From a virus (taxonomy: Duplodnaviria > Heunggongvirae > Uroviricota > Caudoviricetes): a stretch of DNA of 4,350 bases. The DNA lies in IMG/VR virus record IMGVR_UViG_2778261594_000008; one strand, given 5' to 3'. The notes under the pieces are model-generated. The model made no database searches. It was given only the letters and a program-made list of their open reading frames with translations, and was not told where the DNA came from. Numbering within the stretch: position 1 is the stretch's first letter; each line of letters starts with the position of its first letter. Shown here in pieces: positions 1 to 4,350 of the stretch. The translations under genes and the position numbers were made by a program.

Positions 1-1218
1 ATGAACAAACTGAGCGATACCTTGCTAAGGAAACTTCATGGTAAGCCAGCGGAGAAAAACACGTTTTATAGCGATGGCGGAAATCTGAGCGTGAAATATT
101 TAACATCAGGGAAATTAACCTGGTATTTCACTTACAGGGCAGGAACGGGAAGAGAGACACGACCGGAACGTATTAAGCTGGGAAATTATCCTGATCTGAG
201 CCTGAAAGCAGCCAGGGAAAAAGCCGCCCAGTGTCGCGCATGGCTGGCGGAGGGGAAAAATCCACGCCATGAGATGAATTACGCCGTACAGGAAGCGTTA
301 AAGCCGGTAACGGTTGGCGATGCGCTCACCTACTGGCTTGAGTCGTACGTAAAGGAAAACCGCGTGGATTATATCGCCCTGAAAAGGCGACTTAATAATC
401 ACGTAATACAGTACATTGGCGCTATGCCGCTGGATAAATGCGAGCTACGGCACTGGCTGGCCTGTTTTGACCAGGTGGCAAAGCGAACACCTGTTACTGC
501 CGGATTCGTGCTACAGACATGCAAGCAGGCGCTTAAGTTCTGCCGGAGGCGGCGCTTTGCAATCAGCAACGTTCTCGATGATCTGAACGTGGCGGACGTT
601 GGGAAAAAACCGGATATAAGCGAACGTGTCTTAAGCACCAAAGAACTGGGCGAGTTATTGCAGGCGCTGGATAAAAAAATATTTTCTCCTTACTACGTCG
701 CGTTAATTCGCCTCCTGATTGTCTTCGGATGCCGGACAGTAGAACTGAGGTTATCGGAGATCAGCGAGTGGGATTTTACCGAAATGCTATGGACCGTTCC
801 GAAGGAGCACAGCAAAACGAAGGTTGCAATATTCCGGCCCATACCGGAAGCGATCCTGCCGTTCGTCACGCGGCTGGTGGACCAGAACAGGCACACGGGC
901 TTATTACTGGGGGAAGTGAAACAGGAGGCTAGCGTATCGCAGTACGGCAGATTAGCGCACAGGAGGCTAAAACACCCTCAATGGTCATTGCATGACATCC
1001 GGCGCACCTTTACAACCATGCTGAACGATTTAGGCGTTGATCCTCACGTCGTGGAGCAGCTTACAGGCCACCAGATGCCAGGAATGCAACGCGTGTACAA
1101 CCATTCCCGCTATATTGATGCGAAACGCAATGCGCTTGATATGTGGGTGGAGCGGTTGGAGATACTGGCGGGAACACATGAAAACGTAACCACGCTACCA
1201 GTAACCAGAATAAAATAA
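1..1218 (+). CDS. int: Tyrosine recombinase / site-specific integrase, P4 (IntA-like) family, 405 aa
   Basis: ORF fills 1-1218. N-terminus has the arm-binding pattern typical of P4-type integrases (DGGNLSV...LTWYFTY). C-terminus has catalytic box I R (FGCRTVELR) and box II HDIRRT...H...VYNHSRY with the terminal Tyr. Length fits full-length family members. The ATG is at window position 1, so the promoter and att site are not visible. Confidence 0.92.
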   Translation: MNKLSDTLLRKLHGKPAEKNTFYSDGGNLSVKYLTSGKLTWYFTYRAGTGRETRPERIKLGNYPDLSLKAAREKAAQCRAWLAEGKNPRHEMNYAVQEALKPVTVGDALTYWLESYVKENRVDYIALKRRLNNHVIQYIGAMPLDKCELRHWLACFDQVAKRTPVTAGFVLQTCKQALKFCRRRRFAISNVLDDLNVADVGKKPDISERVLSTKELGELLQALDKKIFSPYYVALIRLLIVFGCRTVELRLSEISEWDFTEMLWTVPKEHSKTKVAIFRPIPEAILPFVTRLVDQNRHTGLLLGEVKQEASVSQYGRLAHRRLKHPQWSLHDIRRTFTTMLNDLGVDPHVVEQLTGHQMPGMQRVYNHSRYIDAKRNALDMWVERLEILAGTHENVTTLPVTRIK

Positions 1219-1310: not shown

Positions 1311-1401
1311 GAGGCCAAAAAGAATACAGATTTGTAAGCTACTGATTTTTAATGCTCAGCTGGTTTTTTATACATTAGTGAATTACGCGTTAAAGTGTGC
1401 G

Positions 1402-1438
1402 AAAAAAGGCATAAAACAAGATTTTATGCCTTTGTATT
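1402..1438 (+). terminator. Possible intrinsic terminator or bidirectional hairpin between int and the AlpA-family gene
   Basis: Stem GGCATAAAA (1408-1416), loop CAAGA, stem TTTTATGCC (1422-1430), followed by TTTGTATT and preceded by AAAAAA. The stem is AU-rich (3 GC pairs of 9), so strength is doubtful. Confidence 0.3.
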
Positions 1439-1520
1439 AACATGAATTTAAATGATTTTATCCTGATTATTCCTCTTTCTGTAAACCATGCGACACCAAC
1501 ATTTGCCAACTCTGAATCAT

Positions 1521-1560
1521 CCTGACACAATCAGACACATCCCAACGCAATAGAACACGA
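1521..1560. repeat. Second 10-bp-phased array: GACACAA (1524), GACACAT (1534), AACGCAA (1544), AACACGA (1554)
   Basis: Four related 7-mers at exact 10-bp spacing, 35-70 bp upstream of the AlpA-family start. Candidate promoter-proximal binding sites. Confidence 0.6.
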
Positions 1561-1592: not shown

Positions 1593-1781
1593 GTGTTAAG
1601 CACTGATCGGTTTATACGTGAAAAAGAATGCGAAAAGCTAACAGGCCTTAGCCGCTCATGCCGCTACCGCCTGGAAAAGGCCGGACAATTCCCATCACGT
1701 CGTAAACTTGGTGGGCGTTCTGTTGGCTGGTCTTTATCTGAGGTTTTGGCCTGGAAGGATAGCTGCAAGGCAGTTCACTAA
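1593..1781 (+). CDS. alpA: AlpA / Vis-family helix-turn-helix regulator (excisionase-like), 62 aa, GTG start
   Basis: Protein ...EKLTGLSRSCRYRLEKAGQFPSRRKLGGRSVGWSLSEVLAW matches the AlpA family pattern (TG.SR...Y.L...G.FP....LG.RSVGW...E...W). RBS AAGGGGG at 1581-1587, 5 nt before the GTG. Sits directly downstream of a P4-type integrase, as is typical. Confidence 0.8.
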   Translation: MLSTDRFIREKECEKLTGLSRSCRYRLEKAGQFPSRRKLGGRSVGWSLSEVLAWKDSCKAVH

Positions 1782-2285: not shown

Positions 2286-2465
2286 TTATTCTTTGGGTTC
2301 AATACCGCGTTGCTGTAATTCTTTTCGGATTATTCGTTTTATCCAAGCTGCTAAAGAGTCATCACCGTCTTGTTGTTGTGCTTTTTCCATCTTTTCCCGT
2401 AAGTCAGGATCTAAACGGAACTGGAAAGGAGGATTACCACGCCTTTCATTTTTGTGTGTTGACAC
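2286..2465 (-). CDS. Putative ribbon-helix-helix protein RHH-2 (59 aa, GTG start), paralog of RHH-1; may be degenerate
   Basis: Found by manual translation; not in the supplied ORF track. Sequence VSTHKNERRGNPPFQFRLDPDLREKMEKAQQQDGDDSLAAWIKRIIRKELQQRGIEPKE shows an RHH pattern (beta strand FQFRLDP, helix A, loop, helix B). Same length as RHH-1 and offset by exactly 685 bp. The only in-frame ATG (2390) would give a 34-aa fragment. The GTG overlaps the -35 of the opposing promoter. Confidence 0.4.
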   Translation of the reverse strand: MSTHKNERRGNPPFQFRLDPDLREKMEKAQQQDGDDSLAAWIKRIIRKELQQRGIEPKE

Positions 2466-2486
2466 GTCAATTACACTCCATATAAT
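2459..2486 (+). promoter_or_regulatory. Consensus sigma70-like promoter TTGACA-N16-TATAAT, rightward
   Basis: TTGACA at 2459-2464 and TATAAT at 2481-2486, both perfect hexamers with a 16-bp spacer. Homologous in position to the weaker rightward promoter of module 2 (TTGACG 3212-3217). Confidence 0.45.
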
Positions 2487-2685: not shown

Positions 2686-2913
2686 TCATCCTGGCGGTCG
2701 GTTTTTGCCGGATTTAAGCCGCCGTGGGTATTTATCGACAAAATCTTCAAGGGCAAATTTTTCTGGTGGCACTAAGCGCGGCGCTGGTGGTGGTATTTTT
2801 GTTCTGGTTAGTTCTTCCTCAAGTCTGGCGCAGGCTTCTGACTGCCTTTGCCGGATGATTTCATCATCTTGCGTTTGCGTGTCTTGTATTGGTGATAGTG
2901 TGTTGTTGGTCAT
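2686..2913 (-). CDS. Small hypothetical protein P2 (75 aa), paralog of P1; unknown function
   Basis: ORF with ATG start. AGGG RBS-like motif 8 nt upstream inside the end of the conserved element. Shares N-terminal MTN and the C-terminal F.LEDF.DKY.RR motif with P1. Confidence 0.65.
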   Translation of the reverse strand: MTNNTLSPIQDTQTQDDEIIRQRQSEACARLEEELTRTKIPPPAPRLVPPEKFALEDFVDKYPRRLKSGKNRPPG

Positions 2914-2921
2914 GATACTGC

Positions 2922-2965
2922 CCTGTAAAGCAATGCGCCGTAGTACCTCACACCACGGCGCTGAT
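2922..2965 (-). repeat. Copy 2 of the conserved 44-nt intercistronic element
   Basis: CCTGTAAAGCAATGCGCCGTAGTACCTCACACCACGGCGCTGAT. Differs from copy 1 at three positions, all in the predicted loop. Confidence 0.85.
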
Positions 2966-2970
2966 AGTGA

Positions 2971-3150
2971 TTATTCTGATTCTTTGGCCTTGCGACGCTG
3001 GCGGTATTCAACTTCCCGCTTTAATGCAGTTGTAACAAACTGCCCTGTACTTTCGCCGGGCATTTTTACCGCCTCAACATTGTTCATAACTTCATGTGGA
3101 ACCCTTGCCGCAACTGTTTGTGATTTTGCGTTTACTGCTTTTGTCGCCAT
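2971..3150 (-). CDS. Ribbon-helix-helix (Arc/MetJ/CopG-like) DNA-binding protein RHH-1, 59 aa
   Basis: MATKAVNAKSQTVAARVPHEVMNNVEAVKMPGESTGQFVTTALKREVEYRQRRKAKESE fits strand / helix A / G-x-S-T loop / helix B. ATG at 3150 has RBS GAGGGG 8 nt upstream. The track start at 3159 (GTG) would overlap that RBS, so the ATG is preferred. Confidence 0.7.
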   Translation of the reverse strand: MATKAVNAKSQTVAARVPHEVMNNVEAVKMPGESTGQFVTTALKREVEYRQRRKAKESE

Positions 3151-3198
3151 GTTGAGCACCCCTCATAAAAAACAAATGCAGTATGCAGGAAAAAAAAC

Positions 3199-3253
3199 AA
3201 GTGTTCAACACTTGACGTGTTTAACACCTCGATTTAAATTGGTGTTCAACACC
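3199..3253. promoter_or_regulatory. Divergent promoter region with three 11-bp palindromic operator-like sites GTGTT(C/T)AACAC
   Basis: Sites at 3201-3211, 3217-3227 and 3242-3252. Rightward promoter candidate TTGACG (3212-3217), 17-bp spacer, TAAATT (3235-3240). Leftward candidate TTGAAC (3208-3203 on minus), 17-bp spacer, CATACT (3185-3180). The operators overlap both. Confidence 0.5.
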
Positions 3254-3283
3254 TTATTTAGGCAAGGTGTAGAAACGACGAAA

Positions 3284-3310
3284 CCCCGCACTGTAGGAGC
3301 AGTAACGGGG
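3284..3310 (+). other. Leader hairpin (module 2 copy) in the 5' UTR of ORF A: CCCCG ... CGGGG with inner ACUG/CAGU stem, followed by TCTAACCAA
   Basis: Inverted repeat read directly; homologous to 2533-2566. Confidence 0.5.
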
Positions 3311-3342
3311 CTTCTAACCAACAACGTAAACGAGGAGCCGTT

Positions 3343-3537
3343 ATGGTTGCCGTAAATCATATACCACACCTTGTACACACACAAACGGCCTTTGTGTGGC
3401 GTTTTCTGGCACTGAGTGCCGGAGAATCTCAAATCATCCACGTAACCGCCTGGACGGAACGCGAAGCGCGTAACCTTTGCCCGTCCGGTTGTGTTGCTGT
3501 ATTTGCCGCCCGTATTCGCCAGGGGGTAGGCTTATGA
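3343..3537 (+). CDS. Small protein A (64 aa), possibly Icd-like (host cell division inhibitor-like) family
   Basis: RBS GAGGAG at 3332-3337, 5 nt before the ATG. Stop overlaps the start of ORF B (ATGA). The motif FVWRFLAL...WTEREAR...FAARIRQ recalls Icd-like small proteins of P4-like prophages; this is from memory and needs an HMM search. Confidence 0.6.
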   Translation: MVAVNHIPHLVHTQTAFVWRFLALSAGESQIIHVTAWTEREARNLCPSGCVAVFAARIRQGVGL

Positions 3538-3767
3538 GCCAGGAAATCACACTACAACAGGCAGCAGAACGCGCCCACCAAATCGAAGTTATTTGCGCAC
3601 TGGCAGAGGATTACCCTGGCATGATGACCGACAGCGAATCAGGGGCAATCATCGGCTTACTTAAACGCCTTAGCGGTGAGGTCTGCGTATTCCTGAGCGA
3701 TGAACAGGAAAGAAGAACGCTTATTTCTAACGAAAAAAAATGCGGAGGGGTACACCATGTGCAATAA
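3534..3767 (+). CDS. Small hypothetical protein B (77 aa), alpha-helical
   Basis: ATG at 3534 overlaps the ORF A stop (translational coupling), with AGGGGG upstream. The track's earlier ATG at 3477 lies inside ORF A and is less likely. Confidence 0.6.
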   Translation: MSQEITLQQAAERAHQIEVICALAEDYPGMMTDSESGAIIGLLKRLSGEVCVFLSDEQERRTLISNEKKCGGVHHVQ

Positions 3768-3993
3768 CATCCGTCCGGACGCAGCCGCCGAAGCCATCAT
3801 AACGCTAATGCATGCGCTGATTGATATTTCTGTTATTGCTGACAGGGCGCATAAGCACGCCACCAGTGAAACAGAATATGCTGGGGCTTTCGTTCCTCAT
3901 TCGCTGGCGGTTATGCAACTTAGTGCGGATATGGCACTGAATGAGGCAGGTAAAATTCTTACCGCAGATATTCAGAGGGTACGCCATGAATAA
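3757..3993 (+). CDS. Small hypothetical protein C (78 aa)
   Basis: ATG at 3757 with strong RBS GGAGGGG at 3744-3750, 6 nt upstream. Overlaps the end of ORF B by 11 nt. The track start at 3700 would overlap B by 68 nt. Confidence 0.55.
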   Translation: MCNNIRPDAAAEAIITLMHALIDISVIADRAHKHATSETEYAGAFVPHSLAVMQLSADMALNEAGKILTADIQRVRHE

Positions 3994-4213
3994 AATCCCT
4001 TTTGAAGTATTAATCCACTCTGAAAACGCATTAATTAAAGCGCGCGAAATGAATGCGTTGTTAATTAAATTAATTGAAGTGCCGGAAGGTGGTAAGGAAT
4101 CAGGTGCCTTAATGTTTGCAGCCATTCAGACATTACTATCGCCTGTTATTGATGAACTGGATAAGGCAATGGCAATTCACGAAAATAATAACGCGCCCCA
4201 CACCGGAGAATAA
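3986..4213 (+). CDS. Small hypothetical protein D (75 aa)
   Basis: ATG at 3986 with RBS AGAGGG 6 nt upstream. Overlaps the ORF C stop by 8 nt. Possibly related to B and C (shared ESGA-type motif between helices). Confidence 0.55.
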   Translation: MNKIPFEVLIHSENALIKAREMNALLIKLIEVPEGGKESGALMFAAIQTLLSPVIDELDKAMAIHENNNAPHTGE

Positions 4214-4218
4214 AAATA

Positions 4219-4350
4219 ATGAAACTTAAATATTCTGGCTTAACTGCCAGTGGCAAAACTCGCACTAAATTCATGCGCGGTGATATTTACCGCGACCAGT
4301 ACGGCGGCACGGTAATGATTAAGGGCGTGGCGGGACGGTGCGTAACTTAC
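4219..4350 (+). CDS. Hypothetical protein E, 5' part only (runs off the window end)
   Basis: ATG at 4219, 5 nt after the ORF D stop, with GGAG about 10 nt upstream. Open through 44 codons to the window edge (MKLKYSGLTASGKTRTKFMRGDIYRDQYGG...). Not recognised. Confidence 0.45.
   Translation, partial: MKLKYSGLTASGKTRTKFMRGDIYRDQYGGTVMIKGVAGRCVTY

Follow-up and report, generated by a model that had tools for sequence, protein, structure and literature searches.

In phage P1, the immI operon runs from the c4 antisense RNA through icd to ant, and icd is translationally coupled to ant. In the satellite P4, the left operon has the order cI RNA, eps, orf151, cnr and alpha; among its small proteins, Epsilon is the derepressor of the helper phage and Cnr regulates copy number. 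The phage-inducible chromosomal islands (PICIs) have as common ground with P4 only a distant homology of Int, AlpA/Vis and Pri-Rep (PMC6092414). The prototype Gram-negative PICI is EcCICFT073 of E. coli CFT073, for which helper-phage-dependent induction, excision, replication and high-frequency transfer have been shown (Fillol-Salom et al. 2018, PMC6092414); in this island AlpA is the helper-induced activator, and the roles assumed here for AlpA, c1499 and c1500 come from that work (PMC6092414). PICIs are recognised by an ori-adjacent Pri-Rep gene, a packaging or interference module, a size of about 10-15 kb and the absence of tail and lysis genes.

The stretch of DNA analysed here (the window, 4,350 nucleotides) is, as judged by its gene content, the left half of a PICI of the EcCICFT073 type, an E. 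coli phage satellite, since it carries int, AlpA and Icd-like genes, has a relative of about 12 kb and shares its plan with EcCICFT073. As is typical of PICIs, the integrase gene stands at the left end of the window and a regulator of the AlpA family comes after it. The closest full relative (L090; 96% over the whole window) is an island of about 12 kb in tqsA, whose genes include a DUF927 primase-helicase, SSB, and capsid-like, decoration and TerS genes; indeed, major capsid, head decoration and TerS are known from this island and from that of L001, beyond the reach of the window. The window itself stops inside the DUF4222 gene, past which the next gene in L090 and L001 is the DUF927 primase-helicase; DUF4222 is followed by a primase-helicase (Pri-Rep) gene also in L092. 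A scan of genome contigs for DUF4222 returned 2 loci only; among complete E. coli genomes, 1,753 of 5,426 match part of the window, and satellites of the EcCICFT073 type are widespread. The earlier note had likened three consecutive small ORFs, called B, C and D, to arrays in early or anti-defence operons of mobile elements, and this context was right: they belong to the rightward early operon of a PICI-type phage satellite.

The plan of EcCICFT073 matches that of the window and its relatives, with int, alpA, minus-strand small genes of the YlcI/YnfO type and an Icd-like gene in the left part, and onward the small coupled ORFs, DUF4222, primase-helicase, SSB, PerC, capsid-like and decoration genes. 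In EcCICFT073, B-C-X-D fills the slot that separates the Icd-like gene from DUF4222, whereas at the same place the window has B-C-D1, with no X. Identity between the two is 100% for B (over 74 aa) and 91% for DUF4222, but 42% for C and 39% for D, which are alleles, the D of the window being of a different subtype. Further differences concern the regulatory module, which in the window is duplicated and includes a truncated icd remnant, unlike in EcCICFT073; the insertion site, which is tqsA for the closest relative of the window and next to roxA for EcCICFT073; and the Pri-Rep, which is of the DUF927 type in the closest relative and is described as "DNA primase family" in EcCICFT073. B, C and D correspond to alleles of the "white" hypothetical genes that lie between the regulatory region and the primase-helicase of EcCICFT073-type PICIs. 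The features of the window are collected in Table 1.

Table 1. Features of the window, with coordinates counted from its first nucleotide
Feature	Position	Strand	Description and evidence
Tyrosine integrase	1..1218	+	Pfam Arm-DNA-bind_3 9e-19, Phage_integrase 1.7e-16; PHROG 1
AlpA-family regulator	1593..1781	+	Pfam Phage_AlpA PF05930 5e-18
Promoter-like site	3212..3240	+	TTGACG-17-TAAATT; consensus scan, 9/12 matches
Leader hairpin	3284..3310	+	CCCCG...CGGGG, then CTTCTAACCAA; sequence reading
Icd-like gene	3343..3537	+	First of the operon, 64 aa; NCBIfam NF033153 phage_ICD_like 3.2e-18
ORF B	3534..3767	+	77 aa; acidic (pI 5.0), predicted helical hairpin with disordered tail; PHROG 1478 (3e-28)
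A8 homopolymer	3733..3740	+	3' end of B
ORF C	3757..3993	+	78 aa; small acidic protein; PHROG 5146 (3e-36)
ORF D, subtype D1	3986..4213	+	75 aa; acidic, predicted helical hairpin; PHROG 2196 (1.5e-8)
DUF4222 gene, start	4219..4350	+	Cut by the end of the window; Pfam DUF4222 4e-8

The promoter-like site ahead of the Icd-like gene is likely the start of the operon carrying B, C and D, and the duplicated module has kept its -35 region. Between this site and the Icd-like gene lies a conserved leader hairpin, a copy of which, with the same stem, is found at about 2537-2563; the hairpin belongs to no Rfam family at E ≤ 1. A search of the window against Rfam 15 at the same threshold returned neither C4 nor any other relevant RNA; a BSnc120 match at 1369-1447 was set aside, being far under its gathering score. 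The arrangement resembles the immI operon of P1 in that the Icd-like ORF comes first, overlaps the start of the next gene and has a structured leader ahead of it. It differs from immI in having no match to C4 RNA, in having no Ant, since B, C and D are without a match in Pfam and NCBIfam, and in continuing into replication genes, with proteins of 75-78 aa encoded downstream. With P4, the window shares the presence of the small proteins of a satellite between the immunity region and the primase-helicase gene; however, B, C and D have no sequence similarity to annotated families.

B, C and D are intact small ORFs on the plus strand, and they overlap as first described, by 4-11 nt: the stop of the Icd-like gene and the start of B share 4 nt (ATGA), B and C have 11 nt in common, and the overlap between C and D is 8 nt, while 5 nt separate the end of D from the DUF4222 gene. 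Each start has its own Shine-Dalgarno sequence within the preceding gene (GGGGGTAGG, GGAGGGG, AGAGGG and GGAG in the window). Homologues in Escherichia and Shigella form 22 clusters for B, 223 for C and 95 for D, ranging from near-identical to about 50-75% identity, and each ORF matches one PHROG of its own; C also matches the N-terminal half of PHROG 2512 (154 aa), which represents natural C+X fusions. Because of the many homologues and the separate PHROG matches, B, C and D are, at the level of sequence, genuine genes and not chance ORFs. The median dN/dS is 0.09 for B (4 pairs only), 0.51 for C and 0.47 for D; the last two, at 0.4-0.5, are somewhat higher than the values of the neighbouring genes (0.28 and 0.34), but well under 1, so that the word "diversifying", as applied to the array at first reading, is only weakly true. 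Neither these three proteins nor those of the other slot families have a match in Pfam, NCBIfam or PADLOC, and a sequence search of the PDB gave chance-level matches only. B, C and D are already catalogued hypothetical genes (PHROGs 1478, 5146/2512 and 2196) of a known element, and the finding is in itself an ordinary one: three unrelated, uncharacterised genes in fixed order before the replication genes of a known satellite.

Across 81 related loci, the slot contains 1-5 coupled small ORFs, and their order is always (B)-(C)-(u121)-(X)-D. The array is C-X-D in 21 of the 81, B-C-X-D in 12, a C+X fusion followed by D in 10 and B-C-D in 2, besides others; the window has this last, rarer version, which is devoid of cassette X, and D, which nearly all islands possess, is the only cassette in some. 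Between elements the slot varies as a mosaic, through presence or absence of the small ORFs and replacement of their alleles, and X occurs strictly together with one D subtype. Junctions are tight, with overlaps of 4-28 nt or gaps of at most 3 nt in nearly all cases. In some islands neighbours are fused in frame, as B+C or as C+X. At the 3' end of B, the A8 tract is found in 20 loci where B and C are separate, and an A7 tract in 3 loci, among them the complete genome L001, where they form a fused ORF of 152 aa; the C/X junction of relatives has a poly-G tract of G7-G11, and the lengths of the homopolymer tracts differ between otherwise identical islands. B, C and D are separate, single-copy genes of unrelated sequence, and the slot is a series of colinear optional cassettes. 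It represents a defined, compact set of about seven families, which are candidates for roles in satellite induction, replication and host takeover.

Alone among the three families, B has homologues in temperate phages, namely Fels-1 and seven Klebsiella phages, where neither C nor D is found. The Fels-1 protein STM0898.6n and gp35 of Klebsiella phage KPP5665-2 (62-64 aa) are 38-41% identical to B over 58 aa (E 7e-8 to 3e-7). There, the B-like gene is located between the repressor gene and xis/int, away from replication genes and with no C or D as neighbours, whereas in the window B adjoins the Icd-like gene; as in the window, the B-like genes of lambdoid early-left operons sit in strings of overlapping small ORFs with no assigned function. 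A conserved Icd-B pair was considered and rejected, since the genes upstream of the B-like genes in Fels-1 and the Klebsiella phages have no Icd-like domain.

The earlier prediction of helical proteins was borne out for B and D by their AlphaFold models. For B, helices are predicted at residues 7-25, 28-32 and 34-70 (pLDDT 80.6 for the best model and about 55 for the other four), and for D at residues 6-30 and 36-68 (pLDDT 82). Foldseek comparisons of B with BFVD and the PDB, and of D with the PDB, gave nothing at E ≤ 0.001, and the hits were generic hairpins and de novo designs only. The helical hairpin is the simplest of folds, and it says little on function. D stands beside the replication genes in nearly every island, a position compatible both with a function in replication and with one in takeover. 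A search with the D profile against 1.84 billion representatives found 14 clusters only, all of the short D type, and no link to longer or annotated proteins.

The explanation that we favour, and consider fairly probable, is that B, C and D are early-expressed, protein-binding modulators occupying the slot of a PICI, possibly as parts of one complex, and not diversifying copies of each other. Transcription would start from the promoter ahead of the Icd-like gene once the helper phage has switched on AlpA, and B, C and D would be translated in a relay that includes Icd as well as the replication proteins. Being acidic hairpins with no DNA-binding or enzymatic signature, the slot proteins would most likely act through binding other proteins; the B+C and C+X fusions and the strict linkage of X to one D subtype suggest that together they may form one small helical-bundle complex. 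Such a complex might modulate a host or helper-phage protein in the opening minutes of induction and belong with Icd to one early takeover block. The fusions that the complex idea draws on all arise at homopolymer tracts (A7/A8, G7-G11), and some of them could reflect errors of sequencing or mutations that inactivate the genes. In the literature, screens for interference genes covered only the region downstream of ori (PMC6739421). A literature search on DUF4222, on Icd together with PICI, on EcCICFT073 and on the CFT073 locus tags found none of the slot genes functionally characterised; the "icd" of PMC10111431 was set aside, as it denotes isocitrate dehydrogenase.

An unlikely, though not far-fetched, alternative is that the DUF4222/primase-helicase initiator has the slot proteins, and D in particular, as cofactors, for example in loading, in copy-number control or in recruiting replication proteins of the host. 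P4 offers a positional parallel, with Cnr upstream of alpha. D closes the slot, ahead of DUF4222 and Pri-Rep, in 78 of the 81 arrays, with a spacer to DUF4222 that is nearly always 5 nt, and a D-like gene in vB_KppS-Ant overlaps the start of the primase. PICI maps put the region in the regulation-replication module (PMC6092414). Moreover, deletion of rppA alone fully restored lambda plaque formation in EcCICFT073 (PMC6739421), which means that in that assay the slot genes exerted no measurable block on lambda, with no residual interference left for them to explain. However, D subtypes show no association with any of the four Pri-Rep types, which weakens a specific partnership between D and Rep; D identity falls to 16-39% across loci, while the adjoining DUF4222 remains at 79% or above, except at one locus (L006, 61%). 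In addition, B, C and X are optional, the B-like genes of temperate phages belong to the early-left operon, away from replication genes, and a DNA-binding signature is absent from these acidic proteins.

It is distinctly improbable that each slot protein separately inhibits a host defence or a helper-phage function, the slot being a cargo hotspot. The mosaic of presence, absence and allele replacement would fit, as would dN/dS values somewhat above those of the neighbours, the narrow taxonomic range of the families, the small size and acidity of the proteins and the place of B-like genes in phage early-left operons, where they are among the small accessory ORFs. These same dN/dS values, though, are well below 1, and the strict order and the small number of families (about seven) are unlike an open cargo hotspot. 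No defence-system model of PADLOC was matched by B, C, D, X or u121 at E ≤ 0.1, nor was any solved inhibitor by the PDB and Foldseek searches, and the lambda interference of EcCICFT073 is fully explained by RppA (PMC6739421).

The fusions could also be taken to mean that the slot proteins form one heteromeric bundle in which slippage at the junction homopolymers toggles between separate and fused forms, as a phase-variable device, but we regard this as very unlikely. Sequencing error and neutral or inactivating slippage are alternative sources of the tract variation.

Still a little less probable is the proposal of the earlier note that the three genes are tandem paralogs, descended from one hairpin gene of about 76 aa by tandem duplication and diverged past recognition. 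The near-equal lengths of 75-78 aa, the acidity of all three proteins and the similar form of several junctions, (C)AGGAGG/GAGGG-TRCRCC-ATG, speak for it, as do the models of B and D, which are both helix-loop-helix with the loop at a matching place; these two-helix hairpins are, however, a very simple fold, and by structural modelling their likeness neither supports nor refutes common ancestry. Every sequence test was negative. BLASTP between the three proteins gave E values of 0.18 and 0.16 for two pairs and no match for the third, and global alignments had z-scores of -0.15 to -0.53 against shuffles; the HHalign comparison suggested as a check gave pairwise probabilities below 2%, both with alignments of database homologues and with broader family alignments (80 loci), although these have little depth (Neff 1.3-2.0), so that a very remote homology could have been missed. 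Seven of the 14 D-type clusters were retrieved and read, and none resembled B, C or X; PHROGs, a clustering by remote homology, likewise keeps B, C and D in separate families. The shared (E)SGA/AGA loop is present as the earlier note wrote it, with ESGA at position 35 in B and 38 in D, but it is conserved in none of the three families: ESGA of B becomes DISA in one relative, YAGA of C falls in an indel, and GKESGA of D is replaced by GE--ESSS at 89% identity and by DNERDKQKSR in the main D subtype. By chance, 25% of shuffles would give a 4-mer common to some pair of the three, and 2.7% would give one at a similar position (within 3 residues), the latter a value of P about 0.03 that was obtained post hoc. 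As to copy number, no family occurs twice in any of the 81 arrays, where variation consists in the presence or absence of distinct families in fixed order; a true duplication in this slot, that of u70/u121, was readily detected as a positive control (E 3e-26 and 1e-5), and B occurs alone in temperate phages. Paralogy is therefore largely refuted at the sequence level; the tempting idea of a diversifying paralog array is removed, and the earlier reading as a whole is supported in part, in the early-operon setting in a mobile element.

Finally, it is extremely unlikely that the ORFs serve chiefly as a translational relay to DUF4222 and Pri-Rep, with peptide sequences of little importance, as the icd-to-ant coupling of P1 might suggest: at every junction the genes do indeed overlap tightly, with a Shine-Dalgarno sequence inside, cassettes come in freely varying numbers, and the invariant codons of the C-terminal HTGE of D contain the Shine-Dalgarno sequence of DUF4222, but dN/dS values of 0.09-0.51 indicate that selection acts on the proteins, modelling gives B and D well-packed, amphipathic structures, and the islands with D alone imply that a relay needs one ORF at most.

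Translation of the window bore out the coordinates, sizes and overlaps that the earlier note had assigned to B, C and D, three small ORFs occupying the slot between an Icd-like gene and a DUF4222 gene (see the table). The Icd-like gene overlaps B by 4 nt (ATGA), B overlaps C by 11 nt and C overlaps D by 8 nt, while D ends 5 nt ahead of DUF4222; a Shine-Dalgarno sequence lies within the upstream gene ahead of every start codon. The string begins with the Icd-like gene, is tightly coupled throughout and continues into DUF4222 and the primase-helicase gene (Pri-Rep). A promoter-like site and a conserved leader hairpin are found upstream of the Icd-like gene, and the only terminator-like match inside the string is a weak one within D. 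Judged by sequence comparison, B, C and D are genuine genes, since each has many homologues in Escherichia/Shigella (22, 223 and 95 clusters, respectively, labelled "hypothetical" or "prophage protein"); each matches a separate PHROG, with function unknown in every case (1478, 5146 and 2196), C matching also the N-terminal half of PHROG 2512; median dN/dS across relatives, in a codon-level comparison, is 0.09 for B (only 4 pairs), 0.51 for C and 0.47 for D; and RefSeq annotates C and D as CDS, and B in some genomes.

Coordinates of the features discussed, in the window unless a related locus (L-number) is named
Feature	Position	Strand	Remarks
21-nt repeats	1263-1303, 1513-1533		three copies
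Hairpin	1369-1447		
Minus-strand genes	2025-2228, 2286-2465, 2686-2913, 2971-3159	-	
75-nt direct repeat	2218-2292, 2903-2977		81% identical
Regulatory module copies	2455-2680, 3205-3430		
Sigma-70 consensus promoter	2459-2486		first module copy
icd remnant	ATG 2597		25 codons
Promoter-like site	3212-3240	+	upstream of Icd-like gene
Icd-like ORF	3343-3537	+	
B	3534-3767	+	77 aa
A8 tract	3733-3740		3' end of B
Junction linkers	3741-3759, 3970-3988		
C	3757-3993	+	78 aa
D	3986-4213	+	75 aa
Terminator-like match	4042-4058		weak, within D
DUF4222 gene	4219 onward	+	cut by window end
B+C fusion	L001 12235-12693		152 aa
C/X tract	L092 ~8468-8486		AAAAT-G8-TTATG; also L002, L047
u121 example	L013 3546-3911		
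u70 example	L003 4226-4438		
Fels-1 STM0898.6n	L087 3995-4189		B homologue
KPP5665-2 gp35	L089 3995-4183		B homologue

The left end of the window carries a tyrosine integrase and an AlpA-family regulator, followed by four small genes on the minus strand, of which two are RHH-type (a clear YlcI/YnfO match at 1.6e-16 and a weak one at 5e-4), and then by the Icd-like operon. The closest complete relative, 96% identical across all 4350 bases, is the ~12 kb island of E. coli RM10466, inserted in tqsA, with the order int, alpA, small minus-strand genes, Icd-like, C, D, DUF4222, DUF927 primase-helicase, SSB, major capsid-like, head decoration and TerS. EcCICFT073 has the same gene plan; it is the prototype Gram-negative phage-inducible chromosomal island (PICI), validated by experiment, and its capsid-like and decoration genes are c1499 and c1500 (PMC6092414). 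In the island sequence, taken from the CFT073 genome, four coupled ORFs of 76, 73, 73 and 77 aa separate the Icd-like gene from DUF4222: B (100% identity across 74 aa), an allele of C (42%), X, a further slot family, and an allele of D (39%). Pri-Rep occurs as four alleles among E. coli PICIs (PMC6092414), and the Rep types among the related loci are also four. The window element is an EcCICFT073-type PICI: it has those traits of the type that fall within the window, together with the shared slot genes, replication and packaging traits being seen by proxy only, in near-identical relatives. B, C and D represent families that are catalogued yet uncharacterised, in an element that is itself known, and the systems encountered are of known kinds throughout. 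The operon head also resembles P1 immI, icd being translationally coupled to the next gene; unlike P1 immI, the window gave no match to the C4 RNA family (Rfam) and no Ant homologue (Pfam).

The proposal that B, C and D are tandem paralogs was not borne out. Pairwise BLASTP among them gave E = 0.18, no alignment and 0.16; Needleman-Wunsch scores did not exceed the shuffled-sequence mean (z = -0.15 to -0.53); and hhalign of the family alignments returned probabilities <2% in local and global modes. Their homologue lists do not overlap, and the D profile, searched against 1.84 billion representative proteins, found 14 short clusters only, the seven retrieved showing no B, C or X likeness. The loop motif thought common to the three is not conserved even within families: "SESGA" of B becomes "GDISA" in a 49%-identical relative, "TEYAGAFVPH" of C lies inside an indel and is absent from many alleles, and "GKESGA" of D becomes "GE--ESSS" in the 89%-identical copy of L001 and "DNERDKQKSR" in the main D subtype. 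Shuffling three such sequences yields an exact 4-mer common to some pair in 25% of cases, and one in a comparable position in 2.7%, the latter calculated post hoc. True duplications in the slot are easily visible, as indicated by two minor families, u70 and u121, which served as a positive control: u70 and the N-terminal half of u121 are 64% identical (E 3e-26), and u121 is itself an internal tandem duplication, its halves being 34% identical (E 1e-5). The two families differ in position, u70 lying directly 3' of the Icd-like gene and u121 lying between C and X. Neither matched a Pfam family.

Copy number across elements led to the same result. Loci were gathered with DUF4222 as anchor, 80 from IMG/VR and 2 from genomes, together with annotated loci of E. 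coli, and ORFs were chained from the Icd-like stop to the DUF4222 start in 81 loci; slot ORFs vary from 1 to 5, and no family occurs twice. Of the 238 slot proteins, 73 belong to D, 53 to C, 48 to X and 21 to B, the four main families, with u70, u121 and u61 as minor ones. At almost every junction the ORFs either overlap (by 4, 8, 11 or 28 nt) or are 1-3 nt apart. Architectures are colinear: C-X-D (21 loci), B-C-X-D (12), fused C+X followed by D (10), B-C-u121-X-D and C-u121-X-D (5 each), u70-(C+X)-D (4), C-D (3), B-C-D (2, the window and L004), D alone (2), and others in the remainder. D has two main subtypes: X is always present with D0 ("MRDIY...", 62 loci) and never with D1 ("MNKIPFEVL...", 10 loci including the window). 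Our conclusion from these comparisons is that an operon of conserved order carries B, C and D as separate cassettes, and that they are not copies of one gene. A similar linker, CAGGAGG/GAGGG-T(G/A)C(G/A)CC-ATG, recurs at many cassette junctions (Icd to u70, Icd to C, C to u121, B to C, C to D1), and could stem either from common demands on the Shine-Dalgarno sequence and its spacing or from a linker through which cassettes are exchanged by recombination.

Homopolymer tracts at the junctions are possibly the one new aspect, mostly outside the window. The A8 tract at the 3' end of B is found in 20 loci with separate B and C; A7, in 3 loci including L001, among the window's closest complete-genome relatives, gives an in-frame B+C fusion, of which PGAP annotates the C part only. 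In X-carrying relatives the C/X junction is a poly-G tract doubling as the Shine-Dalgarno sequence of X: C+X fusions of ~150 aa occur with G7 (15 loci) and G10 (2 loci), separate genes with G8 (22), G9 (12) and G11 (1). Tract length sets whether neighbours are separate or fused, with A8/A7 at B/C and G7-G11 at C/X. The C/X tract is hypervariable, since G length varies in 7 of 10 locus groups with identical 150-nt flanks and differs in 23 of 47 near-identical pairs; this variation may represent a contingency switch, neutral slippage or sequencing error.

The B family is common to phages and satellites, as its homologues occur in true temperate phages, namely Salmonella phage Fels-1 and seven Klebsiella phages (38-41% identity, E ~1e-7), where they lie in the early-left operon between repressor and xis/int, among overlapping small ORFs; none has C, D or the Icd-like gene as neighbour. 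A D-like gene overlaps the primase start in vB_KppS-Ant (LR881103.1, 16.5 kb). This "Escherichia phage" was deposited as an induced prophage with only 20 annotated features, and its content (int, regulator, D-like ORF, primase, capsid, portal, head-tail connector, terminase) looks like that of a capsid-forming satellite rather than a complete phage.

AlphaFold2 models agree with the earlier "helix, loop, helix" description for B and D: D is a two-helix hairpin (helices 6-30 and 36-68, pLDDT 82), and B a hairpin with a disordered tail (helices 7-25, 28-32 and 34-70; pLDDT 80.6 in the best model, ~55 in the other four). From its sequence pattern, C may be helix-loop-helix too. The hairpin of B and D is the simplest possible fold and no evidence of common ancestry. 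Fold searches gave nothing at E<=0.001, only generic hairpins, de novo designs and uncharacterised phage proteins, and sequence searches of PDB, Pfam, NCBIfam and PADLOC were empty. Acidic proteins make up the B, C, X and D families, whose median pI is 4.5-5.0 and whose net charge is -5 to -7; none has a convincing transmembrane stretch.

In EcCICFT073 the helper phage switches AlpA on, and AlpA activates the island (PMC6092414); in the window, AlpA activation would lead to transcription of the whole string, with translation passing in relay along it and B, C and D appearing alongside Icd and the replication proteins. As acidic hairpins without DNA-binding or catalytic signatures, the slot proteins most likely act by binding proteins. 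In-frame fusions of neighbours (B+C in 3 loci, C+X in ~17, and the 154-aa PHROG 2512), together with the strict X-D0 linkage, suggest that the cassettes cooperate, possibly as one helical bundle. We favour the view that they modulate host or helper proteins as part of an early takeover block, because slot genes evolve faster than the adjoining ones: D identity falls to 16-39%, that of DUF4222 being at least 79% in all but one locus, and dN/dS is 0.4-0.5 versus 0.28 and 0.34 in the neighbours. The presence of B in phage early-left operons also points to this role. A serious rival is that D is dedicated to replication, for which its position counts; neither D0 nor D1 goes with a particular one of the four Pri-Rep types. 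In published work, the EcCICFT073 interference screen covered genes after ori only, and rppA deletion alone brought back lambda plaques (PMC6739421), which indicates no detectable lambda block by the slot genes.

If anything in the window is a tandem duplication, it is the minus-strand region, not B, C and D. The 75-nt direct repeat marks two tandem two-gene modules, each with an RHH-type gene and a small "MTN..." protein, separated by a GC-rich terminator-like hairpin; the MTN proteins are weakly similar (E 0.012) and the RHH proteins show no BLASTP similarity. The regulatory module upstream of the Icd-like gene is duplicated as well, comprising a -35 TTGAC, a CCCCG...CGGGG hairpin followed by TCTAACCAA, a Shine-Dalgarno sequence, ATGG and "TACACACACAAACG". 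Its first copy has a perfect consensus promoter (TTGACA-16-TATAAT) and leads into a mere icd remnant (MAIKEHSLLFIHTQTPRKRNNPFHS, then stop). The layout of this leader resembles the P1 c4 and P4 cI immunity leaders; it matched no Rfam family. The hairpin at 1369-1447 matched Rfam BSnc120 weakly (27.9 bits vs a gathering score of 114), most likely by chance. Finally, the 21-nt repeats between int and alpA (consensus approximately TGNAACAACGTGACACAATCA) may be Int-arm or AlpA binding sites.
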